In this document: positions 1-26,064 of the stretch, piece by piece | Position numbering within the stretch: the stretch's first letter is position 1 | Layout of the letters: each line of letters begins with the position of its first letter | Assembly: GCF_001598795.1 (NCBI RefSeq) | Contig: NZ_BCZP01000005.1 | Location: 270,001-302,000 of the forward strand | DNA: 32,000 nt | Direction of reading: 5' to 3' | DNA from: Delftia acidovorans NBRC 14950 | GTDB lineage: Bacteria; Pseudomonadota; Gammaproteobacteria; Burkholderiales; Burkholderiaceae_C | Translations under genes and position numbers: made by a program | Notes under the pieces: model-generated | The model's input: only the letters and a program-made list of their open reading frames with translations | The model's database searches: none | Told to the model about the DNA's origin: nothing

Positions 1-281
1 AGGTGACCGAGCGGCCCGAGGCCGTATCGGCCGGCACCGTGCTGCTGGTGGGCACGCAGCGCGCGCGCATCGTGGCCGAGGTCAACCGGCTGCTGGCCGA
101 CGAGGGGCACCACGCCTCGTTTGCGCGCCGCATCAATCCCTATGGCGATGGCCAGGCCTCGCAGCGCATCGTGCGCGCCCTGCTGGGACAGCCCTTCGAC
201 GAGTTTGCCGCCGGACACACAGGCGGCGCGGCCGTCCCGGGCATCACGGCCGCCGTGACCAAGGGCATGGCGCCGGCCTGA
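1..281 (+). CDS. wecB: UDP-N-acetylglucosamine 2-epimerase, C-terminal fragment (gene continues upstream of the window)
   Basis: The frame is open to the window edge. The C-terminal sequence [17 protein letters not shown]...[10 protein letters not shown]...[20 protein letters not shown] follows the C-terminus of E. coli WecB as I remember it (RPEAV.AGTV.LVGT ... [10 protein letters not shown]). Only 78 nt separate it from the next gene, with no hairpin in between. Confidence 0.85.
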
Positions 282-359
282 ACCACGCACGCACCACCCG
301 CGCACCACGTCCACGAAGCGCATTACGAATCGAGCACCGAAGTGAGAAAAGAGGCCCCC

Positions 360-2585
360 ATGCAACCGACCATCCGCCAATCGCTTTCCCGCACCGGTGC
401 CCGCTGGGCGCTGGGTTCGCTGCTGGGCCTGGGCGCCCTGTTCGCGCAGACGGCCTCGGCCTCGGCGCTGGGTGACGCCATACGCCAGCTGGGCGCCAGC
501 GACGGGCTGCAGCGCAGCGTCACGCTCAAGGAGCTGGGCATCGTCGATCCCGTGGTGCTGGCCGGCACGGCCACCCAGGACTTCTACCTGCCCGTGCCGC
601 GCGGCCTGCCGCTGGGCGATGCCAGCATTGCCTTCGACAGCCGCTACCTCAAGGGCGAGCCCGGCGTCTCGACCGTGGTGATCTCGCTCAACGGCACGCC
701 CGCCGTGTCGCAGACCGTGCCCGATGGTGACGGCATGCTGCAGCGCACGCTGCCCGTCGCCCAGCAGGCCCGCGCCAGCGATTTCGTGCGGCTGGGCGTG
801 AACTGGCGCAGCCGCAACGGCCAGGTGCGATGCGATGACAACCATTCCCTGGCCAACTCCCTGACCATCTCGCCGCAGACACGGCTGAGCTACCGCGTGG
901 ACCCGCGCGATGTGCGCAGCATCGAAGATGTCTGGAACACCCTGCCCGTGCGCACCACCGTGCTGGTGGCGGGCAGGCAGCTGGAGCAGGCCTCGTTCGA
1001 CAGTGCCTGGCGCATTGGCGCCAGCCTGCAGCGCAACAACAGGCGCATGACGGTGAACGCATTGCCCGCCGTGGGGGAGACGCTCGACCTGCGAGGCCTG
1101 GAGGTTCCCGCCGCCCTGGCCGGCGTGCCCGCCTTTGCCGCACTGCGCGGCGCCGAGCCCCAGCACAAGCTGGCCAGTGACGCCGAACTGGGCGCGCTGC
1201 TCATGCTGGGGGCCGCCCAGGTCAGCGGAGACATCGTGGTGGCCGACAAGGCACTGCAGCAGCGCCTGACCGCCGCCTTCGCGGCCCTGCAGGCCCAGCT
1301 GGCGGCCGACCCCGATGCGGGACAGGCCCTGCAGCAATGGCGCGCCCGGCGCGCACCGCTGGCCAACGAGGCGCTGGCCTCGCAGCAGTTGCGCGCCCTG
1401 CCCATGGGCCGCCAGATGGTGCTGGCCGTGGCCGCCGACGCGGGTGCGCGCGTGGCCGGCCTGCAAGAGGCCGCCCTGCAGCGCCTGCTGGTCAGCGACA
1501 ACGTGACCGTGGCCGCGGCCCAGCCCCCGCAATGGGACGAGGCCAAGGGCATACGCCTGTCCAGCCTGGGCGGCAGTCCCGACAGCTTCGACGTGCTGTC
1601 GCGCGGCGACTGGACGATGAACTTCCCGCTGAGCGCCGTGGCCTCGCAGGGCCAGATGCCGGGCGAGATCACGCTGTACGTGGCCGCCGCCCCCGGCGCC
1701 TCGGCCACGCGCCCCGTGGCCACGCTGTTCTGGAACGGCATGCTGCTGTCGGCCCGCCAGCTGGAGGCCAACGGCCAGCCCGAACGCCTGCGCGCCCGTG
1801 TGCCCGGCTATGCGCTGGGCATCAACAACACCTTGCGGGTGTCCGTGCAGCGCCAGCCCTACTCGGCCGACTGCAACGAGATTCCCCAGCCCTACCCCGC
1901 CAGCGTGCTGCCGGCCATCAGCTACGTGACGCCCGGCAAGGCCGAGGCCAACGGCAGCTTCATCGGCCTGCTGCCGCTGCTGGGCGCCAAGTCGCAGTTC
2001 CTGGTGCCCGCCAGCTATCTGTCGGCGGCGCCGGCCGCGCTGGAGCGCATGGCCAACCTGGCGGCCGCCAGTGGCCTGTCGGCTTCGCAGGCCGAGCTGG
2101 TCGTGGCCCAGGCCGATGCAACGGCCAAGCCCTCCATGCCCTTTGTCGCCATGGAAGTGCCGGTGGACGGCGCCAAGCCCCTGGTGACGGTGGCGGACCG
2201 GCAGCAGCTGCGCATCCGCGGCAAGTCGGTGGACTGGCTGGACATCAAGGGACTCAAGCAACTGTCCTCGGCCGAAGTGGTCACGGCAGGCGGCCAGCAG
2301 GGCGTGCTGTGGCATGCCATCGGCGAGTGGACGGGCGGCCTGGGCGAGCCCTTCCTGCTCAATCGCGGCAACATCGCCGTGATCGGTGGCGACGGCCCGC
2401 TGGCCTGGGTGGACAGCAGCAATCCCGAAACCGGCATTCCGTCGGGCCCGCGCGAAAGCGCCTTCCACGAATGGCGCAACTTCCTGTCCTGGAGCGTGCC
2501 GGGCATCGCCATCGCGCTGTTCGTGGTGCTGCTGCTGGTGGTGCTGGCCTGGGCGGTGGCGCGCAGCAAGCAGTCCAAGCACTGA
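360..2585 (+). CDS. BcsB-family periplasmic synthase co-subunit (signal peptide, single C-terminal TM anchor)
   Basis: ATG at 360 lies 5 nt after GAGG; the track start at 342 is a GTG without a better RBS. Signal peptide: ...GALFAQTASASA|LGD. The N-terminal block RSVTLKELGIVDPVVLAGTATQDFYLPVPRGL..ASIAFDSRY....STVVISLNGTP parallels the BcsB pattern (L.F.Q.....L.G......F.......A.L.L.Y..S......S.L.V.LN). The C-terminal helix IAIALFVVLLLVVLAWAVARSKQ gives a BcsB-like topology. Confidence 0.75.
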   Translation: MQPTIRQSLSRTGARWALGSLLGLGALFAQTASASALGDAIRQLGASDGLQRSVTLKELGIVDPVVLAGTATQDFYLPVPRGLPLGDASIAFDSRYLKGEPGVSTVVISLNGTPAVSQTVPDGDGMLQRTLPVAQQARASDFVRLGVNWRSRNGQVRCDDNHSLANSLTISPQTRLSYRVDPRDVRSIEDVWNTLPVRTTVLVAGRQLEQASFDSAWRIGASLQRNNRRMTVNALPAVGETLDLRGLEVPAALAGVPAFAALRGAEPQHKLASDAELGALLMLGAAQVSGDIVVADKALQQRLTAAFAALQAQLAADPDAGQALQQWRARRAPLANEALASQQLRALPMGRQMVLAVAADAGARVAGLQEAALQRLLVSDNVTVAAAQPPQWDEAKGIRLSSLGGSPDSFDVLSRGDWTMNFPLSAVASQGQMPGEITLYVAAAPGASATRPVATLFWNGMLLSARQLEANGQPERLRARVPGYALGINNTLRVSVQRQPYSADCNEIPQPYPASVLPAISYVTPGKAEANGSFIGLLPLLGAKSQFLVPASYLSAAPAALERMANLAAASGLSASQAELVVAQADATAKPSMPFVAMEVPVDGAKPLVTVADRQQLRIRGKSVDWLDIKGLKQLSSAEVVTAGGQQGVLWHAIGEWTGGLGEPFLLNRGNIAVIGGDGPLAWVDSSNPETGIPSGPRESAFHEWRNFLSWSVPGIAIALFVVLLLVVLAWAVARSKQSKH

Positions 2586-2627
2586 GCCCGGCCCGGGCAA
2601 CGATGACGACGGCATGAGGCGATCGCC

Positions 2628-4349
2628 ATGATCTCTTCCCTCTACTGGCCCTACCTGGTGGCCGACTACTACCACGCGCTGGAGATCGTCAGCGCCGTGG
2701 TGGCCGTCGTCATCCTGCTGTCCAGCATCGACGACCTGTTCATCGACGCCTGGTACTGGGTGCGCGAGGCCTGGCGCGCGCTGACCGTCAAGCGCCGCTA
2801 CCAGCCGCTCAAGGCACAGCAGTTGCAGGAGGTCGAGGAAAAGCCGCTGGCCATCATGGTGCCGGCCTGGCTGGAGTACGACGTGATCGCACCCATGCTC
2901 GAGAGCATGGTGGGCACGCTGGACTACAAGAACTACATGATCTTCGTGGGCACCTACCGCAACGACGAGCGCACCAAGAACGAGGTGGAGCGCATGCGCC
3001 GGCGCTACCGCCAGCTGGTCCGCGTGGAGGTGCCCCATGACGGCCCCACCTGCAAGGCCGACTGCCTCAACTGGATCGTGCAGGCCATCTTCCAGCAGAA
3101 CACGCTGCAGCCCGAGCCCTTTGCCGGCCTGATCCTGCACGACAGCGAGGACGTGCTGCACCCGCTGGAGCTCAAGTACTACAACTACCTGCTGCCGCGC
3201 ATGGACTTCATCCAGCTGCCCGTGACCTCGCTGGAGCGCGAGTGGTACGAGCTGGTGGCCGGCACCTACATGGACGAATTCGCCGAATGGCACACCAAGG
3301 ACCTGGTGGTGCGCGAGAGCATGTCGCACATGGTGCCCTCGGCCGGCGTGGGCACCTGCTTTTCGCGCAAGGCGATGGAGGAGCTGGCGGCCGAGACCCA
3401 CAACCAGCCCTTCAACACCGACACGCTGACCGAGGACTACGACATCGGCGCTCGGCTGGCGCGCCGGGGCATGAAGCAGATCTTCGGCAAGTTCCCCGTG
3501 GACTACGTGATACGGCGCAAGCCGCTGTTCGGCCTGGGCAAGGAAAAGGTGTCCACGCTGACCATGCCGCTGGGCATCCGCGAGTTCTTTCCCAACACCT
3601 TCAAGACCGCCTACCGGCAAAAGGCGCGCTGGACACTGGGCATCGGCCTGCAGGGCTGGAGCCAGGTCGGCTGGGCCGGGCCGCTGTCCACCAAGTACCT
3701 GCTGTTCCGGGACCGCAAGGGGCTGGTGACCTCCTTCGTGGCCATCCTGGCCTATCTGCTGCTGCTGAACTTCCTGCTGTTCCTGCTGGCCGATCACATG
3801 GGCTGGTGGACGGTGTACTACCCGTCCCTGTTCGCTCCCAACGGCTGGCTGGTGACGCTGATGAGCGTCAACGTCATCGCCCTGCTGCTGCGCGTGGTGC
3901 AGCGCGCCTGGTTCGTCTCGCGCCTGTACGGCTGGGAGCACGCCATGCTGTCCATCCCGCGCATGGTGATCGGCAACTTCATCAATGCCATGGCAGCGGC
4001 GCGCGCCTGGAAGCTGTTCATCGTCCACCTGGTCACGGGCAAGCGGCTGGCCTGGGACAAGACCATGCACGACTTCCCGTCCCCCGACCAGTTGAGCCAC
4101 CAGCGCCAGCGCCTGGGCGAGCTGCTGCTGTCATGGCAGGCCATCGACGAAACCCGGCTGGCCACCGCGCTGGAGATACAGCAGCGCGAACGCCGTCCGC
4201 TGGGCGCCATCCTCATGGAGCAGGGCTGGCTGGACGAGGCCACGCTGCGCGAGGCCATCAGCTTCCAGCAGGGGGAGCCCACCGACCCCACGGTGCATCC
4301 CGACATTCCCGCACAAGGCATTCCAAGCACCCCAAGGGCCGGCATATGA
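2628..4349 (+). CDS. nfrB: NfrB-like processive family-2 glycosyltransferase (exopolysaccharide synthase) with C-terminal MshEN-type c-di-GMP-binding domain
   Basis: Colinear with E. coli NfrB as remembered: LSSIDDLFIDAWYWVR, EKPLAIMVPAW, TLDYKNYMIFVGTY, CKADCLN, ILHDSEDV, IQLPV..LEREW, VPSAGVGTCFSRKA, TEDYDIG, and the QxxRW motif (QKARW, nt 3618-3632). Several TM helices follow the catalytic domain. The MshEN tandem motif is at the C-terminus. Confidence 0.85.
   Translation: MISSLYWPYLVADYYHALEIVSAVVAVVILLSSIDDLFIDAWYWVREAWRALTVKRRYQPLKAQQLQEVEEKPLAIMVPAWLEYDVIAPMLESMVGTLDYKNYMIFVGTYRNDERTKNEVERMRRRYRQLVRVEVPHDGPTCKADCLNWIVQAIFQQNTLQPEPFAGLILHDSEDVLHPLELKYYNYLLPRMDFIQLPVTSLEREWYELVAGTYMDEFAEWHTKDLVVRESMSHMVPSAGVGTCFSRKAMEELAAETHNQPFNTDTLTEDYDIGARLARRGMKQIFGKFPVDYVIRRKPLFGLGKEKVSTLTMPLGIREFFPNTFKTAYRQKARWTLGIGLQGWSQVGWAGPLSTKYLLFRDRKGLVTSFVAILAYLLLLNFLLFLLADHMGWWTVYYPSLFAPNGWLVTLMSVNVIALLLRVVQRAWFVSRLYGWEHAMLSIPRMVIGNFINAMAAARAWKLFIVHLVTGKRLAWDKTMHDFPSPDQLSHQRQRLGELLLSWQAIDETRLATALEIQQRERRPLGAILMEQGWLDEATLREAISFQQGEPTDPTVHPDIPAQGIPSTPRAGI
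4110..4268 (+). other. Tandem 24-residue MshEN-type c-di-GMP binding motif (aa 495-547 of the synthase)
   Basis: RLGELLLSWQAIDETRLATALEIQ - QRERR - PLGAILMEQGWLDEATLREAISFQ. Both halves fit RLGxx(LVI)(LVI)xxG(LVIF)(LVI)xxxx(LVIF)xxxLxxQ with a 5-residue spacer. Deviations are Gly10->Gln and position 11 (Ala) in half 1, and Arg1->Pro and position 11 (Trp) in half 2. Confidence 0.7.
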
Positions 4350-7213
4350 AGCATCTCGCTCCCCTCGTTCGCCCTCTCACGCTGGCCGCGCTGCTGGGCG
4401 CCGGCTGGAACGCGCCGCCGGCCTGGCCGCAGGCCGCAGCAGCCGTCAAGGCCGAGGCGCCGCTCAGGGGCCGCGCATGGCAGCTGGCCAACCAGGCCTA
4501 TGCCCACTATCAGGCCGGCCGCTTTGCACGGGCCGCCAGCGCCGCCGCATCGGCCGTACAGCTGCGCCCCGACCTGCTGCGCCTGCGCATGCTGCTGATC
4601 TACTCGCTGCAAAAGCAGGGCAAGAACGAGGAAGCGCTCAAGGCCATCGCCTCGGCCCGCGCCGCCGGGCTGGACGAGGCCACGCTGCAGCAGGCCGAAA
4701 CCAATGTGCGGGCCGCAGCGGCAGGCGGGGCGGCGGGCGGGCCTGCGGGGGCCACGGCTTCCGAGGCCTACAACAAGGCCTTTCCCATCGCCACGCAGGC
4801 CTACGCCGACTACAACGCCAGGAACTACGCAGACAGCGCGCGCAAGGCCGAGCAGGCCTTTCGCCTGGACCCCAGCCAGGGCCAATGGGCGCTGCTGTGG
4901 ATTGGTGCGCTGGAGGCGCAGGAACAGCTGGGTGCCGCCATCGAGGCCGCAGATGCCGCCCTGGCCCTGGAGCCCCCCAACAAAAGCGATCTGGTGGCCA
5001 AGCGCCAGACCCTGCGCCGCAGCCAGGCCGTGCTGCCGGCGCAAAAGGCCTACCAGGCGCTGATCGCCAACAACCCGGCGCAGGCCGTGCCCTTTGCGCG
5101 CGAGGCCGTGGCGCTGGCGCCGGGAACGGCATCGCACCGCCTGCTGCTGATCACCTCGCTGCTGCTGGCCGAGCAATTGCCCGATGCGGAAAAAGCCGCA
5201 GACGAGGCGCTGGCGCAGGACAACGAAGACACAGCGGCGCTGGGCATGCGCGGCTACATCCGCCAGCGCCAGGGCAAGACCGCACAGGCCAATGAAGACT
5301 TCGATGCCGTGCTCAAGCAGGACTGGCTGGACGAAAAGCAATCGGCCAACCTGCGCCTGATCGCGGCCGACGCGGCCCTGGCCGCTGGCGACGCGGCACG
5401 CGCCCGCGCGCTGCTGGCGCCCATGCCGGCACAGGATGAATCCGTGGCCCGCCGCCTCAAGCAAGCCGATGACCTGCGCCCCGGCCGCGATACGCCCATG
5501 GTGGCCGATACGCGCGGCGCTTCGCAGACCCTGGCCATGGCCGACTATCCGCCGCCCCTGCAGGACTGCCGCGACACGCCCTATGGCACGGTCTGCGAGC
5601 TGCAGCCTTCCGATGCCCAGGGCACGGGCGGCCCCAGCGCCCAGGCCTATGCGGCCTACGCGCGCCAGGACTACAAGGCCGCCATCGAACATGCGCAAAC
5701 GGCCGTGGAGCAGGACCCCGACAATGCGCAACTGCAAAAGCTGCTGACCACCACGCTGGCCGCAGGCAACCGCGACCAGCAGGGCCAGGCCCTGCTGCGG
5801 CTGGACAAGTCCCTGTCCCTCACCCCCAACGACCCCCAACTGCTGATGCAGCGCGGCTACCTGTACTCGCGCCAGGAAGAGCCGGCCAAGGCGCTGCAGG
5901 ACTTTCGCGCGGCGCGCGCCACGGGCGAGGCGCCAGCGGGCGCCATGCTGGACGAAGGCTATGCGCTGGCCGGCACCGGCGACAACCGGGGCGCCGTGCG
6001 CACCTTCAAGGAAGCCATCGACCTGGACGACGCCGGCACCGCCAAGCTCACGCCTGGCCAGCGCGAAAACGCACGCAGCGCCGTCTCCGGCTACGCACGC
6101 GAGTGGGGCGCCATCGTCTCCATGGGCTACCGGGGTGCGCGGCCTGCGGGGCGTGCGTTCTCGGACGGCATCCTCACCCAGGCCGGCGACGCCGTGTTCG
6201 GCACGGCCGAGGCCTACTGGCGTCCGTCCAACTTCCTGAACTCGTCCACCCGCATCTTCGATGTCTACGGGCGGCTGGGCAGCACCTTGCATGACGGCGG
6301 CGGCACCACGCTGGGCCAAAGCGCCATCGACCCCTGCACGGGCCTGCCCATCAATGTGCAGGCGGGCGACAACCGCGGCATCTCTGGCCTGCCCACCACC
6401 ACGGGCTCGCTGGGCATGCGCTTCACGCCGTCCACCAAGTACGCGCTGACCTTTGGCATAGAGCGCCAGTTCAACATCGGCTCCGCCACGCGCTCGGGCT
6501 TCATCACGCCTGAATCGCCCCAGCTGCGCTGCCTGATGAGCGGGCGCGATCCGCTCAACCCCACGGGCCCGGCGCTGGGCAACCCGATATCGGCCAAGTA
6601 CAGTGCGGGCGCGGGCCAGGGCGGCTGGCTGGCCTATGTCACCCATGGCTTCTACGAGGGAACGGGCCGGCGCACGGACCGCTCCAGCTGGTTCACCATG
6701 GAAGGCTACAGCCAGGCCGGCTATGCCAACCAGAGCATGGCCTCGCGCTTCACACTGACCGACCAGACCAGCGGCGCCCAGGTGGGCGACGGCTCGGGCC
6801 GCTACAAGCGCGAGCAATGGTTCTTCTCCACCGAGGCCCGCATCGGCCGCAGCTTCCGCGCCGACGGCATCAACCAGGGCCTGGTGATCTTCCCGTTCGG
6901 CGTGGTCGCGGCCGACTGGATCAAACAGAGGAACCGCGTGCAAGTGCGTTCCCTGCAGGCCGCCCCGGGCGCCACGCCCACCGCAGCCCAATTGGCCGCC
7001 CAGCAGGGACAGACCCTGGCCCTGCAAGGCAATGGCAGCAGTTGGTCGGCCAGCGCCGGCGTGGGCGTCAGCCTGCGCCAGTGGTTCCGCGAAAGCCACT
7101 ACAGCACGGCCCAGTCCTATGTGGACTGGTCCATGCAATACCGCTTCAACATCGGCGGCGGCCAGGCCGACCGGGCCAAGGGCCTCTTCATGACGCTGAC
7201 GCTGTCCTATTGA
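4346..7213 (+). CDS. nfrA: NfrA-like outer-membrane exopolysaccharide export protein (signal peptide, TPR region, C-terminal beta-barrel)
   Basis: The start ATG overlaps the synthase stop (ATGA at 4346-4349). The track ORF 3242-7213 is the same frame with a spurious N-terminal extension. Signal peptide: MKHLAPLVRPLTLAALLGAG. About 550 aa of Ala/Leu-rich TPR-like repeats (AYAHYQAGRFARAASAAASAVQLRPD..., YARQDYKAAIEHAQTAVEQDPDN...). The C-terminal third is Gly/Tyr/Ser-rich, consistent with beta strands, and ends ...GLFMTLTLSY (aromatic terminal residue). Confidence 0.75.
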   Translation: MKHLAPLVRPLTLAALLGAGWNAPPAWPQAAAAVKAEAPLRGRAWQLANQAYAHYQAGRFARAASAAASAVQLRPDLLRLRMLLIYSLQKQGKNEEALKAIASARAAGLDEATLQQAETNVRAAAAGGAAGGPAGATASEAYNKAFPIATQAYADYNARNYADSARKAEQAFRLDPSQGQWALLWIGALEAQEQLGAAIEAADAALALEPPNKSDLVAKRQTLRRSQAVLPAQKAYQALIANNPAQAVPFAREAVALAPGTASHRLLLITSLLLAEQLPDAEKAADEALAQDNEDTAALGMRGYIRQRQGKTAQANEDFDAVLKQDWLDEKQSANLRLIAADAALAAGDAARARALLAPMPAQDESVARRLKQADDLRPGRDTPMVADTRGASQTLAMADYPPPLQDCRDTPYGTVCELQPSDAQGTGGPSAQAYAAYARQDYKAAIEHAQTAVEQDPDNAQLQKLLTTTLAAGNRDQQGQALLRLDKSLSLTPNDPQLLMQRGYLYSRQEEPAKALQDFRAARATGEAPAGAMLDEGYALAGTGDNRGAVRTFKEAIDLDDAGTAKLTPGQRENARSAVSGYAREWGAIVSMGYRGARPAGRAFSDGILTQAGDAVFGTAEAYWRPSNFLNSSTRIFDVYGRLGSTLHDGGGTTLGQSAIDPCTGLPINVQAGDNRGISGLPTTTGSLGMRFTPSTKYALTFGIERQFNIGSATRSGFITPESPQLRCLMSGRDPLNPTGPALGNPISAKYSAGAGQGGWLAYVTHGFYEGTGRRTDRSSWFTMEGYSQAGYANQSMASRFTLTDQTSGAQVGDGSGRYKREQWFFSTEARIGRSFRADGINQGLVIFPFGVVAADWIKQRNRVQVRSLQAAPGATPTAAQLAAQQGQTLALQGNGSSWSASAGVGVSLRQWFRESHYSTAQSYVDWSMQYRFNIGGGQADRAKGLFMTLTLSY

Positions 7214-7270
7214 AAGCCCTGCCCCGCCGCCGCCACCACCACACAGAAAAGAGAAAAGGAGAAAGCTCCC

Positions 7271-8329: not shown

Positions 8330-9467
8330 CACCGTGGACCCCACCGCGCAAGAACTGCAAACCGACAAAGGACACCGGCGCAACGCCTGGATCTGGGGCG
8401 CCCTGCTGCTGTCGGGCCTGGCCTGGGGCGGCTGGACGCTGGCCAGCGGGGGACCGAAGGCCGGCGAGCTGCAACTGGCCGCCTGGCTGGATGGCCGCGC
8501 GGGCGCGGCGCTGAACAAGGGCCTGCGCCTGCCTGCGCAGTCCTCGCTGGAAACCGGCCAGGCCGCGCTGCGCTACCGCCTGCTGGGCGACACGGGAGCG
8601 CAGGTGGCCCTGGGCTGCCCGCAATGGATGTTCTACCGCGACGGCCTGCGGCCCCAGCCCGGCACGGGCGCCGCGCCCTTCGAGGCGCGCCAGCGTCTGC
8701 TGCGCCACTGGACGCGGCAGTTGCAGGACAAAGGCATTGCCACCCTGGTGGTGGCCGTGCCCGACAAGTCGCGCATCGAGGCCGCCCATCTGTGCGGCCT
8801 GCCCGTGGCTCCCGTGATGCTCCAGCGCCTGGACCTGTGGCAGCAGCGCCTGCAGGCCGACGGCATTGCCTTCGCCGATCTGCGCCCCGCCCTGCAGGCT
8901 CAGGAGCAGTCACAGCCGGTGTTCTTTCGCACCGACGTGCACATGAATGCCGAGGGCGCACGCGCCGCCGCCCTGGCCGTGGCCCAGGCCGCGCTGCCGC
9001 TGCTGGGCGGGCAGCGCGGCGCCCAGGCCTTCGAGGAATCCGCGCCCGGGCCGCTGCAGCCGCTGCCCGGCGACCTGCTGGCCCTGGCCGGCCTGGCCGA
9101 CGCACCGGCAGGCTGGCGCCCGCAGCGCGACGAAATACGCCCCCAGGCCATCACCCCCGTGCGCGGCGGCGGCCTGCTGGACGAGACGCCGCCCGTGCAG
9201 GTGCTGCTGGCCGGAAGCTCCAACGGGCTGCGCAGCAATTTCGCGCCACAGCTCGGCCGCGCGCTGGGCCAGGAAGTCTGGAACCTCAGCATGGACGGCG
9301 GCCAGTTCAGCGGCGCCATGGTGGCCGCGCTCAAGCGCCGCGCCTCCTGGCCGGCCAGCCTGCGGCTGGTGATCTGGGAGTTCTCGGAAAACACCTTGTC
9401 CCTGCCCCTGACGGACGATGAAAAAGCGGCGCTCAAGGAGATGGACGCCGCCTCCCCGCCTGCGTGA
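8310..9467 (+). CDS. AlgJ-like SGNH-like O-acyltransferase, N-terminally membrane-anchored paralogue
   Basis: GTG start at 8310 (GGAG 7 nt upstream; overlaps the previous gene by 20 nt) or GTG at 8334. There is no in-frame ATG near the 5' end. TM anchor: AWIWGALLLSGLAWGGWTLA. Motifs: QWMFYRDG, the FFRTDVHMN Asp-x-His block (nt 8934-8942), and LLAGSSNG (Gly-x-Ser). Confidence 0.65.
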   Translation: MPRSRADTVDPTAQELQTDKGHRRNAWIWGALLLSGLAWGGWTLASGGPKAGELQLAAWLDGRAGAALNKGLRLPAQSSLETGQAALRYRLLGDTGAQVALGCPQWMFYRDGLRPQPGTGAAPFEARQRLLRHWTRQLQDKGIATLVVAVPDKSRIEAAHLCGLPVAPVMLQRLDLWQQRLQADGIAFADLRPALQAQEQSQPVFFRTDVHMNAEGARAAALAVAQAALPLLGGQRGAQAFEESAPGPLQPLPGDLLALAGLADAPAGWRPQRDEIRPQAITPVRGGGLLDETPPVQVLLAGSSNGLRSNFAPQLGRALGQEVWNLSMDGGQFSGAMVAALKRRASWPASLRLVIWEFSENTLSLPLTDDEKAALKEMDAASPPA

Positions 9468-9480
9468 CCCCGCCCGCTAC

Positions 9481-11061
9481 ATGCTGTTCAATTCCTATCT
9501 TTTCCTGCTGCTGTTCCTGCCCATCGCGCTGGCGGGCCACTACCTGGCCGGGGCCATCAGCCTGCGGCTGGCCGCGTTCTGGCTGTGCCTGACGTCCTTC
9601 GTCTTCTACGGCTGGTGGAACCCGCAGTTCGTCGCCCTGCTGGCCCTGTCCATCGCCTTCAACTACGTGGTGAGCCTGCTGATCCTGCGCTTTGCGGGCC
9701 GCGCGCGGCTGCAGGGGCTGGTCACCGCCCTGGGCGTGGGCGCCGACCTGGCGGCACTGTTCCACTACAAGTACTTCGCCACGCTGTTCAACTTCCTGGG
9801 CGAATGGGGGCTGACGCAGGGCGGCATGCACGAGCTGATCCTGCCCCTGGGCATCTCGTTCTTCACCTTCACCCAGATCGGCTACCTGCTGGACTGCCGC
9901 TCGGGCATCGTCAAGGAACGCAGCCTGCTCAGCTACGTGCTGTTCGTGACCTTCTTCCCGCACCTGATCGCGGGGCCCATCCTGCACCACAAGGAAATGA
10001 TGCCGCAGTTCGCGCAGCCGGATAACTACCGGTTCCGCGCGGACAACCTGTCCATCGGCGGCACGCTGTTCGTGATCGGCCTGGCCAAGAAGGTGCTGCT
10101 GGCCGACGAGATCGCGCCCTATGCAGACGCGGGCTTTGCCGCGCCCGGCGACCTGCAGTTCTGGGCCGCCTGGGGCGCCAGCCTCAGCTACGCGCTGCAG
10201 CTGTACTTCGACTTCTCGGGCTATTCGGACATGGCGCTGGGCCTGGCGCGCATGTTCGGCATCCGCTTCCCGCTGAACTTCAACTCGCCCTACAAGGCCG
10301 GCAGCATCATCGACTTCTGGGCGCGCTGGCACATGACGCTGACGCGCTACCTCACGGCCTACCTGTACTACCCCGTGGCCATGGCCATCTCGCGTGCACG
10401 CGAAAAGCGCGGCCTGTCCGTGGGCTCCAGCGCCGCGCGCACGCCCGGCGGCTTTGCGGCCACCATCGTCGTGCCCACGCTGTTCACCATGGGGTTGGCG
10501 GGCATCTGGCACGGTGCGGGCCTGCAGTACGTGATCTTCGGCCTGCTGCATGCCTTCTACCTGTCGGTCAACCATGCCTGGCGCATCTTCGTGGTCAGCC
10601 GCAAGCCGGCCGCCGCACGCAAGTCGGGCCGGGGCGTGCAGGCGCTGTGCGTTGTCATCACCTTCATCGCCGTGCTCATCGCCCAGACCTTCTTCCGCGC
10701 CCATGGCGTGGGCGACGCCATGCTGTTGCTCAAGGGCATGGCCGGCCTGCGCGGCGTGGAGGCGCTGGAATCGCTGTCGCACCTGCAGGGCCTGGCCGTG
10801 GGCGACGCGCTGCGGCTGGCCATAGGCCACCACATGCAGCTGGCCCTGGTCCTGCTGCTGCTGGCCATTGCCTGGTTCACGCCCAATGCCCACCAGATCC
10901 TGGGCCGCTTCTCGCCCGCCATGTTCAAGGTGCAGGAAGCGCCCCGCGCCTGGATGCGCTGGCGCCCCAGCGCAGGCTGGACGGCCGTGACCCTGGTCCT
11001 GCTCTTCCTGTGCCTGGTCAACCTGCACAAGGAAACCCGCTTCCTGTATTTCCAGTTCTGA
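9481..11061 (+). CDS. algI: AlgI-type membrane-bound O-acyltransferase (MBOAT)
   Basis: Start MLFNSYLFLLLFLPIALAGHY matches the AlgI N-terminus pattern; the track start at 9418 is a spurious extension. MBOAT hallmarks: FPHLIAGPI, LYFDFSGYSDMALGLARMFG, DFWARWHMTLTRYL, GIWHGAG (catalytic His). The C-terminal ...RFLYFQF matches the ...FLYFQF tail of P. aeruginosa AlgI as I recall it. Confidence 0.9.
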   Translation: MLFNSYLFLLLFLPIALAGHYLAGAISLRLAAFWLCLTSFVFYGWWNPQFVALLALSIAFNYVVSLLILRFAGRARLQGLVTALGVGADLAALFHYKYFATLFNFLGEWGLTQGGMHELILPLGISFFTFTQIGYLLDCRSGIVKERSLLSYVLFVTFFPHLIAGPILHHKEMMPQFAQPDNYRFRADNLSIGGTLFVIGLAKKVLLADEIAPYADAGFAAPGDLQFWAAWGASLSYALQLYFDFSGYSDMALGLARMFGIRFPLNFNSPYKAGSIIDFWARWHMTLTRYLTAYLYYPVAMAISRAREKRGLSVGSSAARTPGGFAATIVVPTLFTMGLAGIWHGAGLQYVIFGLLHAFYLSVNHAWRIFVVSRKPAAARKSGRGVQALCVVITFIAVLIAQTFFRAHGVGDAMLLLKGMAGLRGVEALESLSHLQGLAVGDALRLAIGHHMQLALVLLLLAIAWFTPNAHQILGRFSPAMFKVQEAPRAWMRWRPSAGWTAVTLVLLFLCLVNLHKETRFLYFQF

Positions 11062-11082
11062 AACACCTGTTGGAGAAAAACC

Positions 11083-11322
11083 ATGTCCCTGAATGACATC
11101 GAAACCAAGATTGCCCAGATCATCGGCGCCATCATCCTGACCTCGGTCGAGCCCGATACGCTGCTGCTCGAATCGGGCCTGGTGGACTCGCTGTCCGCCG
11201 TGGACGTGGCACTGGCCATCGAAAAGGAATTCGGCGTCAAGATACCGCCATCGGAGATCGACCTGCACCTGGAATCCGTGCACACGCTGGCGCAGTACGT
11301 GGCCGAGCAGCGCAAGGCCTGA
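11083..11322 (+). CDS. Stand-alone acyl/aminoacyl carrier protein (DltC/PCP-like)
   Basis: 79 aa with a GGAGA RBS. Phosphopantetheine-attachment context GLVDSLSAVDVALAIEKEFG, with the candidate Ser encoded at 11188-11190. The size and acidic helix pattern are typical of carrier proteins. Confidence 0.8.
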   Translation: MSLNDIETKIAQIIGAIILTSVEPDTLLLESGLVDSLSAVDVALAIEKEFGVKIPPSEIDLHLESVHTLAQYVAEQRKA

Positions 11323-11379
11323 TGCAGCGCCTGCACGCCGCCGCCCTGTCCCTTTGTCCCTGCGCAACAAGGAGCCCGC

Positions 11380-12864
11380 ATGCGATTCAGTTTTGACCGC
11401 TTCGACTTCACCGAGCCCGGCGCCGACACCGCGCGGCCCGCCGTGATCGATGCCGCCGGCACGCTGGACTGGCAGCAACTGGCCCAGGCCGTGGCGCAAT
11501 GGGAGCAGCAGGCGCTGGCGCGCGGCGCGCGGCGCGACGAGCCGCTGCTGATCACGGGGCACAAGGAGACCGCGTTTCTCGTGGCCATCCTCGGCTGCCT
11601 GCGCCTGGGCGTGCCCTTCGTGCCGGTGGACGTGATCAACCCGCCCGAGCGCATGGCGCGCATCGCCACGCTGGTGCAGGCCGGCCTGCACTACGACGCG
11701 CAGGCCCGCAGCTTCCTGGACACCGGCATCGCCGCGCAGCCGCTGCAGGAAAAGTCGCTGGCCTACATCATGTTCACCTCGGGCAGCACGGGCGATCCCA
11801 AAGGCGTGCAGATCGGGCGCGAGAGCCTGGGCCTGTTCGCCGGTTGGATACGCGACTGCCTGGCCCTGGGCGAGGCGCCGGTCTTCATGGACCAGATGCT
11901 GTTCAGCTTCGACTTTTCGCTGTTCAACTGGATGGGCGCCCTGGTCACGGGCGGTGCCTGCGTGCTGTGCGCGCGCGAGACCATTGCCGACCGCCAGGCC
12001 TTTGCCGCCTACCTGGCGGGCACCCATGTGAACGTCTGGGCATCCACGCCCTCCTTCGTGCGCCAGCAGCTGCTGGATGCAGACTTCGACCAGCAGCACC
12101 TGCCCGACCTGCGCGTCTTCGTCTTCGGCGCCGAATCGCTCACGCCCACCGTGGCCGAGGCGCTGTGGAGCCGCTTTCCCCAGGCGCGCATCATCAACTC
12201 CTACGGCCCCACCGAGGCCACCTGCTCCACCACCTGGGTGGAGATCGACCCCGCGCTGCGCCAGCGCGCGCCGCTGCCCTTTCCCATCGGCCGGGCCAAG
12301 CCCTATGCCGATGTGTTCCTGGACGAAGGCGAGATCTGCGTGGCCGGCGACCATGTGATGCGCGGCTACCTCAACCGCACCGACCTGCACGCCACACGCA
12401 TGTTCATGCGCAACGGCAAGCGCGGCTACCGCACGGGCGACCTGGGAGAGATCGACGGCGAGGGCCTGGTCACCTTCCACGGCCGGCGCGACGACCAGAT
12501 CAAGATGCACGGCTACCGCATCGAGCTGGCCGAGGTCGATGCCGTGCTGGCCACCCTGCCCGGCGTGCGCGCGGGCGCGGCGGTGGCACTCAAGCGGCCC
12601 GATGGCTTCATCGTGCGCATGATCGGCTTCGTGGACCTGGACCGCAGCGGCCCGCCCGGCATGCAGCCCCTGCCCGAAGACCTGGCCGGGTGGCGCGAAC
12701 TGCTGGCCCAGCGCGTGCCGCCCTACATGATTCCGTCGGAACTGCTGGCCTGCCACGGCTTTCCGCTAACGCAGACTGACAAGGCCGACCGCAAGCAACT
12801 GGAGCGCATGTACCTTGATGCACGCATGCGCCCCGCCAAGGAAACCAAGGACCCGCAGGCATGA
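11380..12864 (+). CDS. DltA-like stand-alone adenylate-forming enzyme (carrier-protein ligase)
   Basis: AAGGAG RBS. Adenylation core motifs: YIMFTSGSTGDPKGVQI (nt 11764-11808), NSYGPTEAT, YRTGDLG, GRRDDQIKMHGYRIELAEVD, and a terminal DKADRK lysine. The N-terminal half is colinear with B. subtilis DltA as remembered (PLLITGHKE..VAILGCLRLGVPFVPVD...PPERMARI versus PILVYGHME..VSFLGSVKAGHPYIPVD...PSERIAKI; FSFDFSLFNWMGALVTGG versus FSFDLSVMDIYPSLVTGG). Confidence 0.85.
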   Translation: MRFSFDRFDFTEPGADTARPAVIDAAGTLDWQQLAQAVAQWEQQALARGARRDEPLLITGHKETAFLVAILGCLRLGVPFVPVDVINPPERMARIATLVQAGLHYDAQARSFLDTGIAAQPLQEKSLAYIMFTSGSTGDPKGVQIGRESLGLFAGWIRDCLALGEAPVFMDQMLFSFDFSLFNWMGALVTGGACVLCARETIADRQAFAAYLAGTHVNVWASTPSFVRQQLLDADFDQQHLPDLRVFVFGAESLTPTVAEALWSRFPQARIINSYGPTEATCSTTWVEIDPALRQRAPLPFPIGRAKPYADVFLDEGEICVAGDHVMRGYLNRTDLHATRMFMRNGKRGYRTGDLGEIDGEGLVTFHGRRDDQIKMHGYRIELAEVDAVLATLPGVRAGAAVALKRPDGFIVRMIGFVDLDRSGPPGMQPLPEDLAGWRELLAQRVPPYMIPSELLACHGFPLTQTDKADRKQLERMYLDARMRPAKETKDPQA

Positions 12865-13562
12865 CCTCCGCTTTTTCCCCCGTGATGCGTACCGTCGCGC
12901 TCGCCCTGGCCGGCCTGGCCGGGCTCTCCTGCCTGCCCGCCGCGCATGCCGAAGGCACGCTGGCCCAGCTCTATGCGGCGCGCCCGCCCGCAGGCTCGTC
13001 CTTCGTGCGCGTGGTCCACCCCGACGCGGGCAGCCTGCGCGTGAAGATAGGCAGCGGCCCCGAGCAGACGCTGTCCGGCAGCAAGCCGGCCAGCAGCTAC
13101 GCCATCGTCAAGGGCGACACGCCCTTCGGCATTCAGCTGGACGGCAAGAGCGCCGGCAGTATGAAGGTGGCGCCGGGCAGCTTCACCACCCTGGTGCCGC
13201 AGCGCCCGGGCAGGAATGCGGCCGCGCGCTTCACGGCCATCGACGACTCCGGCGGCAGCCAGGACGCGCTCAAGGCCGAGCTGCGTTTCTACAACCTCAC
13301 CACGGACTGCCCCCAGGGCGGCCTGCAGGTCGCGCCCGCGGGCACGCCGCTGTTCACGGGCGTGGCGCCGGCCGCATCGGCCAGCCGCTCCATCAACCCG
13401 GTCAGTGCCCAGCTCGCCGCCACCTGCGCCACTGCGGCCAGCGCGCCGCTGGCGCTGCCACAGTTGCAGCCGGGCGACCACTACAGCCTGTTCATGACGG
13501 GTACGGCCGCCGCACCCGTGCTGCGCGGCCAGGCCAGCGCCACCGACACCTATCGTCCCTGA
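12861..13562 (+). CDS. algF: AlgF-like periplasmic protein (accessory component of Alg-type O-acylation)
   Basis: The start overlaps the upstream stop (ATGA at 12861-12864). Signal peptide: ...LSCLPAAHA|EG. Blocks parallel to P. aeruginosa AlgF as remembered: QLYAARPPAGSSFVRVVH (ALYGP.APKGS.FVR..N), SFTTLV (YYTLV), AELRFYNLT, RSINPVSAQLAA (REINPVKV.LAL), YSLFMTGTA. This rests on recall only. Confidence 0.6.
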   Translation: MTSAFSPVMRTVALALAGLAGLSCLPAAHAEGTLAQLYAARPPAGSSFVRVVHPDAGSLRVKIGSGPEQTLSGSKPASSYAIVKGDTPFGIQLDGKSAGSMKVAPGSFTTLVPQRPGRNAAARFTAIDDSGGSQDALKAELRFYNLTTDCPQGGLQVAPAGTPLFTGVAPAASASRSINPVSAQLAATCATAASAPLALPQLQPGDHYSLFMTGTAAAPVLRGQASATDTYRP

Positions 13563-13588
13563 CCCAGCCCAAGGAGACCGACACAGAC

Positions 13589-14734
13589 ATGCGCACCCGC
13601 TCCGTATTGCGTGAAGACCACCTGCTGTTCAAGGAACAGGTGGACCGATTCGTGGCCACCGAGATCCTGCCCCACATCAATGACTGGGAGGCCGAGGGCA
13701 TCACGCCGCGCGCCCTGTGGCGCAAGGCCGGCGACAGCGGCCTGCTGAACTGCGACCTGCCTCCGCCCTACGGCCAGGGCGGCGACTTCGGCCACGCGGC
13801 CGTGGTCATCGAGGCGCTGGCGCGCGCCAACTGCCTGGGCATCGGCTTTTCCATCCATTCCGACATGGTGGCGCCCTATCTCTGGAACTTCGGCACGCAG
13901 GTGCAGAAGGACCGCTGGCTGCCGCGCATGGCCACGGGCGAGCTGATTGGCGCCATCGCCCTGACCGAGCCCGGCGCGGGCAGCGACCTCAAGGCCGTGC
14001 GCACGCGCGCCCGGCGCAAGAGCGAGAGTGAAGGCGGCGGCTACGTGCTCAACGGACAGAAAACCTTCATCACCAACGGCGTCAACGCCGGCCTGATGGT
14101 GGTGCTGGCCAGCACCGAGCCCGACCTGGGCGCGCGCGGCCTGTCGCTGTTCGTGGTGGAAGAAGGCATGAAGGGCCTGGGCAAGGGACCGGCGCTGCGC
14201 AAGATAGGCCAGCACAGCCAGGACACCTGCGAGCTGTTCTTCGACGAACTGCACCTGCCGGCCGACCACCTGCTGGGGCGCGAGAACGCTGCCTTCGAGC
14301 ATGTGACCCAGGAGCTGGCGCAGGAACGGCTGGCGATCGCGCTGCGCGCGGCGGCCTCCACCGAAGGCATGCTGGACGAGGCCGCCGAGTTCGTGCGCAA
14401 CCGCAAGGTCTTCGGGCGCCGCGTGCTCGACTACCAGAACACCCGCTTCAAGTTCGCCGACGCCCTGGCCAAGACCACCATGCTGCGCGTCTTCCTGGAC
14501 GACTGCCTGACCCAGCACATGGAAGGCTCACTGGACTCCGTCACCGCCGCCATGGCCAAGCTCAACGCCACCGAGCTGCAGGGCCAGGTGCTGGACGAGC
14601 TGCTGCAACTGCACGGCGGCTACGGCTACATGGCCGAATACGGCATTGGCCGCGCCTGGGCCGATGCACGGGCGCTGCGCATCTTCGGCGGCAGCAGCGA
14701 AATCCTCAGAGAGATCATCGGCAAGCGCTTCTGA
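13589..14734 (+). CDS. Acyl-CoA dehydrogenase-family flavoprotein (substrate unknown; possibly acts on a carrier-protein thioester)
   Basis: ATG at 13589 lies 11 nt after AAGGAGA; the track ORF 12815-14734 has a spurious N-terminal extension. ACAD pattern throughout: LFKEQVDRF, GAIALTEPGAGSDL, GQKTFITNG, and the C-terminal RIFGGSSEILREIIGKRF. The gene sits 26 nt downstream of the algF-like stop. Confidence 0.85.
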   Translation: MRTRSVLREDHLLFKEQVDRFVATEILPHINDWEAEGITPRALWRKAGDSGLLNCDLPPPYGQGGDFGHAAVVIEALARANCLGIGFSIHSDMVAPYLWNFGTQVQKDRWLPRMATGELIGAIALTEPGAGSDLKAVRTRARRKSESEGGGYVLNGQKTFITNGVNAGLMVVLASTEPDLGARGLSLFVVEEGMKGLGKGPALRKIGQHSQDTCELFFDELHLPADHLLGRENAAFEHVTQELAQERLAIALRAAASTEGMLDEAAEFVRNRKVFGRRVLDYQNTRFKFADALAKTTMLRVFLDDCLTQHMEGSLDSVTAAMAKLNATELQGQVLDELLQLHGGYGYMAEYGIGRAWADARALRIFGGSSEILREIIGKRF

Positions 14735-14751
14735 CCCGGCAGCCACCGCGC

Positions 14752-15726
14752 TCAGCGGGCGGCGGCCTTCCACTCGCGCAGCAGTTGCCGGGCCTCTGGC
14801 GTGTCGTTCAGCACCCAGGGGTCGATGGCGAAGGCGACCACGCGCTGGGCGCCGTAGTCGCGGGCCACGTCCCACTGGCGGCGCACGCGCTCGAAGCTGG
14901 CCGTGCGCGCCTGGAAGTCCGAGCCATCGGGCCGCGTGGGCGGCAGTTGCTCGAACAGTTCCACGATGAGGTCGAACGGCGCCCTGCGCTCCAGCAGCAT
15001 CTGCTGCAGCGGTGCCAGCGCCTCGTAGTTGCGCAGGCCCGCCACGCCCACGCCGTCCTGCACCATGGGGCGCAGGGATACGCGGTCCAGCAGGATGCTC
15101 CACAGCGTGGGCAGGCTGCCCAGCGTCTGCAGCTGGCTGAAATAGGTGGAGATGCCGGGCACTTGGCCGGATGTGGCCGCTGCCGCCTGCGCCAGTGGCT
15201 GCAGTGCGCTCACCAGCAGCTCGATGCGCTCGGGCGCGGCCCAGTGGTATTGCTCCAGCTCGTAGGGGATGTACCAGCCGCGAAACGCCGCATGGCGCGG
15301 CCAGGTGCTGGTGTACATGTGGCTGGCGCCCTGCTCGGCGATATGCGCCAGGTAGGGCGCGGGGCCTGCGGCGTTGGAAAGGCTGATCTGCTTCCACCAG
15401 CGCTCGTCATAGGGCAGGCCCAGGTGCACGCCCATGCCCAGTTCGGTGCAGATGTCCAGCAAGTCGGCGATCTGCGCGTCGGCCAGCATCCAGCTGTCCG
15501 CCTCGGAATCGCCTTGCAGGCCGCTCCATTGCACGAACAGCTCCCGGCAGCCCAACGCCTGGGTGGCGGCCAGGCGCTGGCGCCATTGATCGCGCGGCAT
15601 CTCCAGATGGCTGCGCCACGGCTGCAGGAAACTGCCCGACACGGGCGCCGAGGCCGCGCAACCGACCAGCGAGGCACAGGCGGCGGCCGCGCCGGCGCCG
15701 AGGAATTCGCGTCTGGACAAATGCAT
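14752..15726 (-). CDS. Tat-exported lipoprotein, DUF4434-like (glycoside-hydrolase-like TIM barrel) protein
   Basis: Start at MHLSRREFLGAGAAAACASLVGC: a twin-arginine motif SRREFL followed by a lipobox LVGC. Blocks GSFLQPW....W...L......G..ELFVQWSG and GWYIPYELE resemble the DUF4434 family as I recall it. The gene is convergent with the EPS operon (17 nt between stops). Confidence 0.55.
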   Translation of the reverse strand: MHLSRREFLGAGAAAACASLVGCAASAPVSGSFLQPWRSHLEMPRDQWRQRLAATQALGCRELFVQWSGLQGDSEADSWMLADAQIADLLDICTELGMGVHLGLPYDERWWKQISLSNAAGPAPYLAHIAEQGASHMYTSTWPRHAAFRGWYIPYELEQYHWAAPERIELLVSALQPLAQAAAATSGQVPGISTYFSQLQTLGSLPTLWSILLDRVSLRPMVQDGVGVAGLRNYEALAPLQQMLLERRAPFDLIVELFEQLPPTRPDGSDFQARTASFERVRRQWDVARDYGAQRVVAFAIDPWVLNDTPEARQLLREWKAAAR

Positions 15727-20217: not shown

Positions 20218-20241
20218 ACGTGGCACGGCAGGGACTGGCGT

Positions 20242-26062: not shown

Positions 26063-26064
26063 GC

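Follow-up and report, generated by a model that had tools for sequence, protein, structure and literature searches.

What does a bacterium assemble with a gene cluster in which the proteins of an Nfr-type exopolysaccharide (EPS) system stand beside a subunit of cellulose-synthase type, a set of alginate-type acyltransferases and enzymes resembling those that load D-alanine for teichoic acids? This question is raised by the EPS locus at positions 1-15726 of a Delftia acidovorans window (the whole stretch of DNA analyzed, 32,000 nucleotides), which comprises the 3' end of wecB, ten close-packed genes on the plus strand (360-14734) and one convergent gene (Table 1). As far as sequence and predicted structure tell, we consider it quite probable that the locus encodes a synthase-dependent EPS system of the Nfr type that is gated by cyclic di-GMP (c-di-GMP), has an added BcsB-like subunit and acylates its polymer from a carrier protein. 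More tentatively, and as a possibility that we would not yet call probable, we propose that its membrane-bound O-acyltransferase (MBOAT) is the first AlgI/PatA-type enzyme with a fused shuttle to be fed by an aminoacyl carrier instead of acyl-CoA, and that an Nfr-type EPS, containing N-acetylmannosamine (ManNAc), bears a so far undescribed non-alanine group oxidized by a flavoenzyme.

The first gene after wecB encodes a 741-aa protein that matches no Pfam or NCBIfam family at E values up to 10 and no PDB sequence in a phmmer search; its close homologues likewise lack a Pfam BcsB match at E values up to 10, and a profile of 47 sequences of the family finds no BcsB chain, nor anything else relevant, among PDB sequences. 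The relationship to BcsB appears in the wider family and in the predicted fold. An exhaustive HMMER search gave 350 cluster representatives, from which 47 diverse full-length members were used; 37 of these 47 match Pfam BcsB (PF03170, best E 3e-13), and the gathering score is passed by six of ten homologues inspected. The matches cover profile positions 2-141 at the N terminus and recur near residue 466, a twofold pattern that corresponds to the duplicated layout of BcsB. While a first AlphaFold model based on 13 close homologues was discarded (predicted local distance difference test, pLDDT, 51.8), the AlphaFold2 model from the deeper 47-sequence alignment reached a pLDDT of 86.6 and a predicted template modeling score of 0.83, and ends in a helix at residues 697-740. 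Foldseek searches of the PDB with this model returned BcsB chains as all of the top 22 matches (E 1.8e-24 to 4e-13, approximately 750 aligned columns, 10-13% identity), the best match other than BcsB having an E value of 4e-7. The initial annotation had called this protein a BcsB-like subunit; at the level of the predicted fold, with two jelly-roll and flavodoxin-like modules and a C-terminal transmembrane (TM) anchor, that designation stands, even with no direct family match.

A BcsB fold might indicate that the locus is a cellulose-type (Bcs/Wss-like) system, whose synthase would make an acylated glucan rather than an Nfr-type ManNAc polymer. Homologues of the 741-aa protein carry the BcsB name in some public records, and the Wss operon for acetylated cellulose joins BcsAB with AlgI/J/F-like genes (PMC8892547). 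The synthase encoded by the next gene points elsewhere. This protein has the motifs DSED at residue 172, TED at 268 and QKARW at 331, matches Pfam Glyco_trans_2_3 (E 3e-39) and passes both the NCBIfam equivalog NF012033 (PRK15489; 945 bits, cutoff 537) and the model of MshE-related c-di-GMP motifs, NF053729 (54.4 bits, cutoff 38). It is 43% identical to Escherichia coli NfrB over 559 aa, and public records label its homologues "bacteriophage N4 adsorption protein B". Its C-terminal MshEN-type motifs begin at RLGE (495) and PLGA (524), and L496-G497 and L524-G525 align with L490, G491 and L537 of E. coli NfrB, changes of which abolish function (Junkermeier and Hengge 2021, PMC8669469). The first of the 24-residue c-di-GMP motifs has Gln in place of the conserved Gly at position 10. 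With these motifs the synthase would be activated by c-di-GMP.

The predicted outer-membrane exporter matches NfrA_C (67 bits, cutoff 25, profile positions 81-171 of 173) and several tetratricopeptide repeat (TPR) families, the same domain make-up as that of E. coli NfrA. These results agree with earlier designations of the two proteins as an NfrB-like glycosyltransferase of family GT2 and an NfrA-like TPR/beta-barrel exporter. The proposed linkage to wecB also holds beyond Delftia: wecB heads the cluster in the four other genera Achromobacter, Variovorax, Burkholderia and Paracidovorax (loci L084-L087), while the locus of Bordetella pseudohinzii has only a 117-aa Epimerase_2 fragment at this position (L088:7415-7768), which may be a decayed gene. 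Given an NfrB-type synthase with an MshEN motif rather than PilZ, a porin carrying NfrA_C, an attached YbcH-family protein and wecB at the head of the cluster in all examined genera but one, we reject the cellulose-type interpretation as exceedingly improbable.

The YbcH-family protein is the product of the convergent gene, described initially as a glycosidase-like lipoprotein. It matches Pfam DUF4434 over nearly the whole profile (264 bits, positions 1-282 of 283), and E. coli YbcH, encoded by the third gene of nfrBA-ybcH, matches the same family at 235 bits. Because both proteins belong to DUF4434, counterparts of all three Nfr proteins and of WecB (NfrC) are present; the initial annotation had BcsB take the place of YbcH, and the locus in fact has both. 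The lipoprotein carries a twin-arginine signal (SRREFL) and a lipobox (LVGC); it fails the PRK09936 equivalog in NCBIfam (62 bits, cutoff 344) and has no sequence relative in the PDB.

To see how this core and the genes embedded in it are distributed, we used an adenylase alignment as query against one genome per species, which yielded 80 loci. The set from the GT2 gene through the DUF4434 gene is colinear in 62 of these 80, in beta- and gammaproteobacteria (Delftia, Pandoraea, Trinickia, Achromobacter, Diaphorobacter, Oxalicibacterium, Cupriavidus, Stenotrophomonas, Xanthomonas and Pseudomonas, and likewise Burkholderia multivorans and Bordetella genomospecies). Two loci have the core without the acylation genes and without the dehydrogenase: in Variovorax (L085) a full wecB is followed by the BcsB-like, GT2, NfrA and DUF4434 genes, and B. 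pseudohinzii (L088) has the latter four, so the DUF4434 gene stays with the core. Since core-only and full versions both occur, the acylation/donor block behaves as a cassette between nfrA and the ybcH-like gene. The block is also found in other arrangements. In Paracidovorax oryzae the genes for adenylase, carrier and an acyl-CoA dehydrogenase family protein form a separate, convergent three-gene unit (L087:19297-21698) that adjoins algX-algX-MBOAT-algF. In the alphaproteobacterium Xanthobacter, represented by a metagenome-assembled genome (MAG; L017:5870-17274, also L015 and L054), the seven genes of the module, dehydrogenase included, lie together and are followed by a gene for a 1190-aa porin with TPR and NfrA_C, with no synthase or BcsB-like gene within 21 kb. 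Just downstream in L017, on the opposite strand, is a gene with a thioesterase domain.

This synteny bears on the claim that the locus is a new architectural variant. What is new is the combination of Nfr, BcsB, Alg-type acylation and a Dlt-like donor, all components being of known kinds; the combination is widespread and no one-off mosaic, and the Alg-like insertion had been noted before. One sentence of an earlier paper mentions Alg-like genes within some nfr clusters and proposes acetylation (Junkermeier and Hengge 2021, PMC8669469); that remark is silent on BcsB and on any carrier, adenylase or dehydrogenase. Our literature search, which was in part poorly targeted, found no study of the cluster beyond this remark.

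The Alg-type part of the module is complete in that Pfam finds two ALGX domains, an MBOAT and an AlgF, as the designation "full Alg-type modification set" had implied. In the AlgX-like protein a D-x-H motif (DQH, residues 169-171) and G-H-S (258-260), and in the AlgJ-like protein D-x-H (DVH, 209-211) and G-S-S (302-304, numbered from the 8310 start), are assigned by motif as the putative catalytic triad residues. The AlgJ-like protein has an N-terminal hydrophobic anchor; the AlgX-like protein lacks a C-terminal carbohydrate-binding module. A (QA)6 repeat follows the signal peptide of the latter. The MBOAT has WHG at residue 343, scores below the cutoff of the DltB model TIGR04091 (179 bits) and ends in FLYFQF; a C-terminal F-x-Y-F-Q-F is present in all 79 matching loci and is FLYFQF in 78 of them. 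This FxYxxF motif is an acyl shuttle, the Tyr of which carries the acyl group from the MBOAT to its SGNH partner in PatA, and which in Dlt resides on the separate microprotein DltX (PMC12148441). MBOAT/SGNH pathways have been divided into two kinds, one fed by acyl-CoA and with a fused Tyr shuttle (PatA, AlgI, WssH) and one fed by a carrier and with a separate DltX (Dlt), and those other than Dlt are stated to "lack a similar carrier protein" (PMC12148441).

On this precedent the polymer would simply be O-acetylated from acetyl-CoA, as alginate is, and the carrier, adenylase and dehydrogenase would be unrelated neighbors. All characterized MBOATs with a fused FxYxxF use an acyl-CoA donor (PMC12148441), all four Alg-type families are encoded here, and an Alg-like insertion in Simplicispira has been read as an acetyltransferase complex (PMC8669469). 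However, the genes for carrier and adenylase are positioned between the MBOAT gene and algF wherever that order is kept, they follow the rearranged module in Paracidovorax and Xanthobacter, and they are absent where the module is absent (Variovorax and B. pseudohinzii). Every Alg-type module encountered contains the pair, although the collection was gathered for the most part via the adenylase and could overlook modules that lack it. We therefore think that the donor is probably not acetyl-CoA, because the module itself includes a carrier, an adenylase and a dehydrogenase, and we rate plain O-acetylation as very unlikely.

If the donor is charged on the carrier, the adenylase should tell what it is. 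The carrier has its attachment Ser in a DSL motif (residue 36), and the adenylase is a stand-alone enzyme encoded near the small carrier and the MBOAT. The initial annotation of a Dlt-like donor pair is borne out by the PP-binding domain of the carrier and by Bacillus subtilis DltA (3e7w, 239 bits) as the best single-domain PDB match of the adenylase, PltF scoring 142-146 bits. This match makes canonical D-alanylation an obvious candidate: the pair would load D-alanine and the Alg-type proteins would esterify the polymer with it, giving positive charge as in teichoic acids or the Bordetella dra system. Public annotation of homologues as D-alanine--poly(phosphoribitol) ligase points in the same direction, and the related P. 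oryzae locus encodes an adenylase with the D-Ala-like specificity code DVYVLCTVAK. Moreover, dlt-like loci in Achromobacter and Schauerella (L080-L083) encode an adenylase with 51% and carriers with 54-59% identity to the Delftia proteins. These loci, from Achromobacter aegrifaciens, A. piechaudii, an Achromobacter sp. MAG and Schauerella, are a separate dlt-like, presumably dra-type, locus with an MBOAT approximately 30% identical to that of Delftia and with neither Alg-type genes nor a dehydrogenase, so that the genus Achromobacter carries both kinds of locus.

The substrate pocket argues for a different amino acid. Read from the conserved motifs and the alignment, the Delftia code is DFFAVGSCSK; it is exactly conserved in 73 of 120 homologues (60-100% identity), and ten more are identical at the nine pocket positions, whereas the dlt-like homologues, approximately 51% identical, from Bordetella and Schauerella and the other loci of the L080-L083 group have DLYVLCTVAK. 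All eight variable positions differ between the two codes. Among them is position 301, at which Cys sets D-Ala selectivity in DltA and the Delftia enzyme has Gly, and residues at the bottom of the pocket are mostly smaller (Thr/Val to Ala, Cys to Gly, Thr to Ser, Val to Cys). The adenylase also falls below the cutoffs of both DltA hidden Markov models (NF003417, 327 bits against 476; TIGR01734, 323 bits against 560), and D-alanylation would leave the conserved dehydrogenase with no role. The equivalents of Asp235 and Lys517 are kept, which indicates that the substrate carries an amino group. Because the pocket code is near-invariant in the family and unlike that of D-Ala-specific DltA, canonical D-alanylation is unlikely, and the enzyme, although DltA-like in kind, probably does not load alanine. 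The cationic-peptide resistance once inferred from D-alanylation is accordingly unsupported as stated. An attempt to name the amino acid from the code was abandoned, the nearest codes known to us (Val, Ile, Leu and Thr) sharing four of ten positions, which is too weak a match.

The last plus-strand gene, left unnamed in the earlier inventory in which the AlgF-like gene was no more than implied, encodes a protein with all three Pfam Acyl-CoA_dh domains. Its alignment with human long-chain acyl-CoA dehydrogenase (LCAD; 339 bits) spans the entire protein and pairs ELAQERL with ELPQERL; its catalytic Glu lies on helix G at the position used by LCAD and isovaleryl-CoA dehydrogenase (IVD; QERL, residue 246), with Gly at the position of Glu376 in the medium-chain enzyme MCAD. 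The gene is found in the 62 full colinear loci and is absent from both core-only loci; in five genome loci, four of Pandoraea and one of Stenotrophomonas daejeonensis, it is the sole gene missing. Being present in full loci, absent from core-only loci and grouped with carrier and adenylase elsewhere, it belongs to the conserved donor module. The P. oryzae dehydrogenase belongs to another subtype; its best PDB match reaches only 31 bits, on the C-terminal 217 aa.

A carrier, an adenylase and a dehydrogenase encoded together call to mind PltF/PltL/PltE and RedM/RedO/RedW, and by the same three-protein logic the triad might convert proline to a pyrrole-2-carboxyl group, the pyrrolyl being then placed on a sugar. 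The NCBIfam matches of the dehydrogenase do include the prolyl-PCP dehydrogenases RedW (196 bits) and PigA (181 bits). However, the dehydrogenase is far closer to LCAD than to the prolyl-carrier dehydrogenases (140-152 bits), the adenylase is closer to DltA than to PltF, and the pocket code is unlike the proline codes that we know. With both enzymes nearer to other subfamilies, we reject a pyrrolyl decoration, to which we attach hardly any probability.

Altogether, these observations lead us to propose the following pathway for a c-di-GMP-gated Nfr-type system with carrier-fed acylation. WecB would supply UDP-ManNAc, and the NfrB-like GT2 in the inner membrane would polymerize and translocate the chain upon binding of c-di-GMP to its MshEN motif. 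The BcsB-fold subunit, held by its C-terminal TM helix, would take the chain in the periplasm, and the NfrA-like TPR/beta-barrel protein would export it; the DUF4434 lipoprotein, predicted to be exported by the twin-arginine translocation (Tat) pathway, would be an auxiliary component and may be a hydrolase. Meanwhile, the DltA-like enzyme would adenylate a non-alanine amino acid and load it onto the DltC-like carrier, where the LCAD-type flavoenzyme probably oxidizes the tethered group, a step that would be optional because some Pandoraea lack the gene. The AlgI-type MBOAT would then transfer the acyl group through the membrane to the Tyr in the FLYFQF at its own C terminus, and from this Tyr the AlgJ-like and AlgX-like SGNH-like transferases, with AlgF, would put it on the polymer. 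The analysis establishes to which family or fold each protein belongs, its catalytic and ligand-binding motifs, the conservation of gene order and co-occurrence, and a pocket unlike that for D-Ala; from these we infer the sugar of the polymer, activation by c-di-GMP, the feeding of the MBOAT by the carrier, the action of the dehydrogenase, and the identity and position of the acyl group.

Several points weigh against this pathway. In the core, the synthase fails the NfrB equivalog NF008411 (593 bits, cutoff 1170); because it passes the sister equivalog NF012033, we assign it to the NfrB family, outside the E. coli orthologue group. It also lacks the C-terminal extension of approximately 170 aa (172 aa) of E. 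coli NfrB that bears the Pfam MshEN match, and in pairwise comparisons the exporter and the lipoprotein are weakly similar to E. coli NfrA and YbcH, respectively. With regard to the donor, DFFAVGSCSK matches no specificity code known to us, and the DltA reference code of B. subtilis, to which DLYVLCTVAK is close, is taken as approximately DLMTMCTVAK. The dehydrogenase is nearer to ordinary LCAD than to the dehydrogenases that act on carrier proteins, at the scores given above. Finally, alpha,beta-dehydrogenation of an alpha-aminoacyl thioester would give no obvious stable product, which makes oxidation of the carrier-tethered group, our best guess for this enzyme, the least secure step.

The layout of the genes suggests a single transcription unit. 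Gaps between the genes called within 360-14734 do not exceed 57 nt, and there are two ATGA overlaps, at 4346-4349 (synthase and NfrA-type genes) and 12861-12864 (adenylase and AlgF-like genes), in line with the packed plus-strand operon downstream of the wecB 3' end that had been described initially. An additional 20-nt overlap reported there exists only if GTG 8310 is the start of the AlgJ-like gene; GTG 8334, 4 nt past the preceding stop, is the more likely start, because the Achromobacter (L084) and Burkholderia (L086) loci have the same 4-nt gap. Scans found no terminator-like site on the plus strand within 360-14734 and no sigma-70 promoter, both weak evidence in DNA of 70% G+C; Rfam at its gathering thresholds likewise gave no riboswitch, either for the window or for three related loci. 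The gap before the AlgX-like gene (7214-7270) holds a purine-rich run, CACAGAAAAGAGAAAAGGAGAAAG, and, on the minus strand, the sole terminator-like match of the region.

The wecB fragment in the window covers positions 304-363 of the 366 in TIGR00236. An identical Delftia contig (L001) has the complete gene, encoding 400 aa (Epimerase_2), 79 nt upstream of the gene for the 741-aa protein. Upstream of this wecB, L001:1-650 opens with a sequence that resembles the 3' terminus of a tRNA gene (GGTTCGAATCCC...CCA), together with a T-run hairpin, and approximately 590 nt of non-coding, less G+C-rich DNA separate the tRNA-like end from wecB. The operon thus begins just outside the window; the cluster may lie at a tRNA-adjacent site, with its promoter likewise outside. 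The G+C content of the window is 63-73% per kb, and its adenylase gene shares 99% identity with the one in D. acidovorans MMO-42 and 97% with the one in D. tsuruhatensis.

Table 1 Genes of the EPS locus in the Delftia acidovorans window
Feature	Position	Strand	Evidence
wecB 3' end (UDP-GlcNAc 2-epimerase), first gene of the cluster	3-281	+	TIGR00236 E 1e-18, 92-aa fragment
BcsB-like periplasmic co-subunit (predicted), 741 aa, signal peptide and C-terminal TM anchor	360-2585	+	Pfam matches of homologues and fold
NfrB-type processive GT2 synthase, 573 aa	2628-4349	+	Pfam Glyco_trans_2_3, NF012033, NF053729
NfrA-type outer-membrane exporter (predicted), 955 aa, signal peptide, TPR, C-terminal NfrA_C barrel region	4346-7213	+	Pfam
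AlgX-like periplasmic SGNH-like acyltransferase, 352 aa, signal peptide	7271-8329	+	Pfam ALGX 258 bits, full length
AlgJ-like membrane-anchored SGNH-like acyltransferase, 377 aa (GTG 8334) or 385 aa (GTG 8310)	8334-9467	+	Pfam ALGX 255 bits
AlgI/PatA-type MBOAT, 526 aa, fused C-terminal FLYFQF (FxYxxF)	9481-11061	+	Pfam MBOAT
DltC-like phosphopantetheine carrier protein, 79 aa	11083-11322	+	Pfam PP-binding
DltA-like stand-alone amino-acid adenylating enzyme, 494 aa	11380-12864	+	Pfam AMP-binding
AlgF-like periplasmic accessory protein, 233 aa, signal peptide	12861-13562	+	Pfam AlgF 46 bits (cutoff 34)
LCAD-type FAD acyl-CoA dehydrogenase family protein, 381 aa	13589-14734	+	three Acyl-CoA_dh domains
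YbcH-family (DUF4434) lipoprotein, 324 aa, convergent	15726-14752	-	Pfam DUF4434 264 bits

A local diguanylate cyclase has been described for pseudomonad nfr operons (PMC8669469). In Burkholderia multivorans a divergent GGDEF-domain gene lies approximately 1.1 kb upstream of wecB (L086:4376-5500) and is a candidate for such an enzyme; the open reading frames of the window that were scanned with Pfam include neither a GGDEF nor an EAL gene. Downstream of the EPS locus (16024-21159), genes for a sodium:dicarboxylate symporter and a LuxR-type response regulator (20242-21159), both on the minus strand, flank one for a hybrid dCache-PAS histidine kinase that carries a receiver domain (17566-20217); because they are common only to other Delftia loci, all three probably lie outside the system. 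The G+C content falls to approximately 63% at 21000-23000, compared with approximately 70% elsewhere, and this part includes a Porin_4 gene (21409-22437). Farther on, within 23664-31122, are minus-strand genes for an MlaD-domain protein and a MerR-family regulator (25598-26062), the latter divergent from a P-type ATPase gene (26102-28306) with which it looks like a metal-efflux pair, and the gene for an outer-membrane efflux protein (29674-31122).

Nfr has so far been studied only in E. coli, as the source of the phage N4 receptor; with the locus described here, a richer, widespread form that has a BcsB-like subunit is added. Its combination of a fused-shuttle MBOAT with carrier, adenylase and dehydrogenase allows the choice of donor to be tested directly and points to an unrecognized polysaccharide substituent. 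The naturally occurring core-only and core-plus-module versions permit direct comparison. Carriers of the locus include opportunists in cystic fibrosis (Achromobacter, Stenotrophomonas including S. maltophilia, Burkholderia multivorans and Pandoraea), and in these and in Pseudomonas it is of practical interest for the c-di-GMP-dependent matrix, phage susceptibility and host interaction. If our proposal is correct, the modification could alter recognition by N4-like phages.

How, then, does the Delftia system compare with those already known? With E. coli NfrB-NfrA-YbcH and NfrC/WecB, which make the phage N4 receptor glycan (PMC8669469, PMC8669472), it shares a GT2 with DxD, TED and QxxRW and an MshEN-type motif, an outer-membrane protein with TPR and NfrA_C, a DUF4434 protein and dependence on, or linkage to, a UDP-GlcNAc 2-epimerase. 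It differs in the addition of the BcsB-fold subunit, in having wecB within the cluster, in a YbcH counterpart that is a convergently encoded Tat lipoprotein, in a synthase that is 172 aa shorter at the C terminus and in the seven-gene acylation/donor module between nfrA and the ybcH-like gene. Cellulose synthase BcsA-BcsB is the precedent for a subunit with the full BcsB fold and a C-terminal TM anchor whose gene adjoins that of a processive GT2 synthase regulated by c-di-GMP, as the Delftia enzyme presumably is; in Delftia, however, the subunit is 10-13% identical to BcsB and encoded upstream of the synthase, the predicted c-di-GMP receptor is of the MshEN type, not PilZ, and the porin is of the NfrA type, not BcsC.

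The acylation genes share their plan with those of alginate (AlgI-AlgJ-AlgF-AlgX) and acetylated cellulose (WssFGHI). In all three cases the MBOAT has a C-terminally fused FxYxxF, one membrane-anchored and one periplasmic SGNH-like protein of the ALGX family are accompanied by an AlgF-like protein, and the genes are embedded in a synthase-dependent EPS operon. The Delftia module is different in embedding a carrier, an adenylating enzyme and a flavin dehydrogenase, and its AlgX-like protein, unlike AlgX, has no carbohydrate-binding module. DltABCD(X) of teichoic acids and the dlt-like (dra-type) loci of Bordetella and Achromobacter likewise have a stand-alone adenylase and a small carrier near an MBOAT, with the Asp235 and Lys517 equivalents kept and with 51-59% identity between the Delftia adenylase and carrier and the proteobacterial dlt-like proteins. 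The Delftia pocket code, in contrast, is unlike theirs at every variable position; the MBOAT, approximately 30% identical to the dlt-like one, carries its own shuttle motif, and hence no DltX would be needed; in place of DltD there are AlgJ/AlgX-type proteins, an exopolysaccharide is the acceptor, and a dehydrogenase is added. Finally, the PltF/L/E, RedM/O/W and AnaC/D/B triads also encode an adenylase, a carrier and a flavoprotein of the acyl-CoA dehydrogenase family together, with the catalytic Glu at the IVD/LCAD position. The Delftia dehydrogenase is LCAD-like, outside the prolyl-carrier clade, its adenylase is DltA-like, and its product would reach a polysaccharide via an MBOAT rather than a secondary metabolite.

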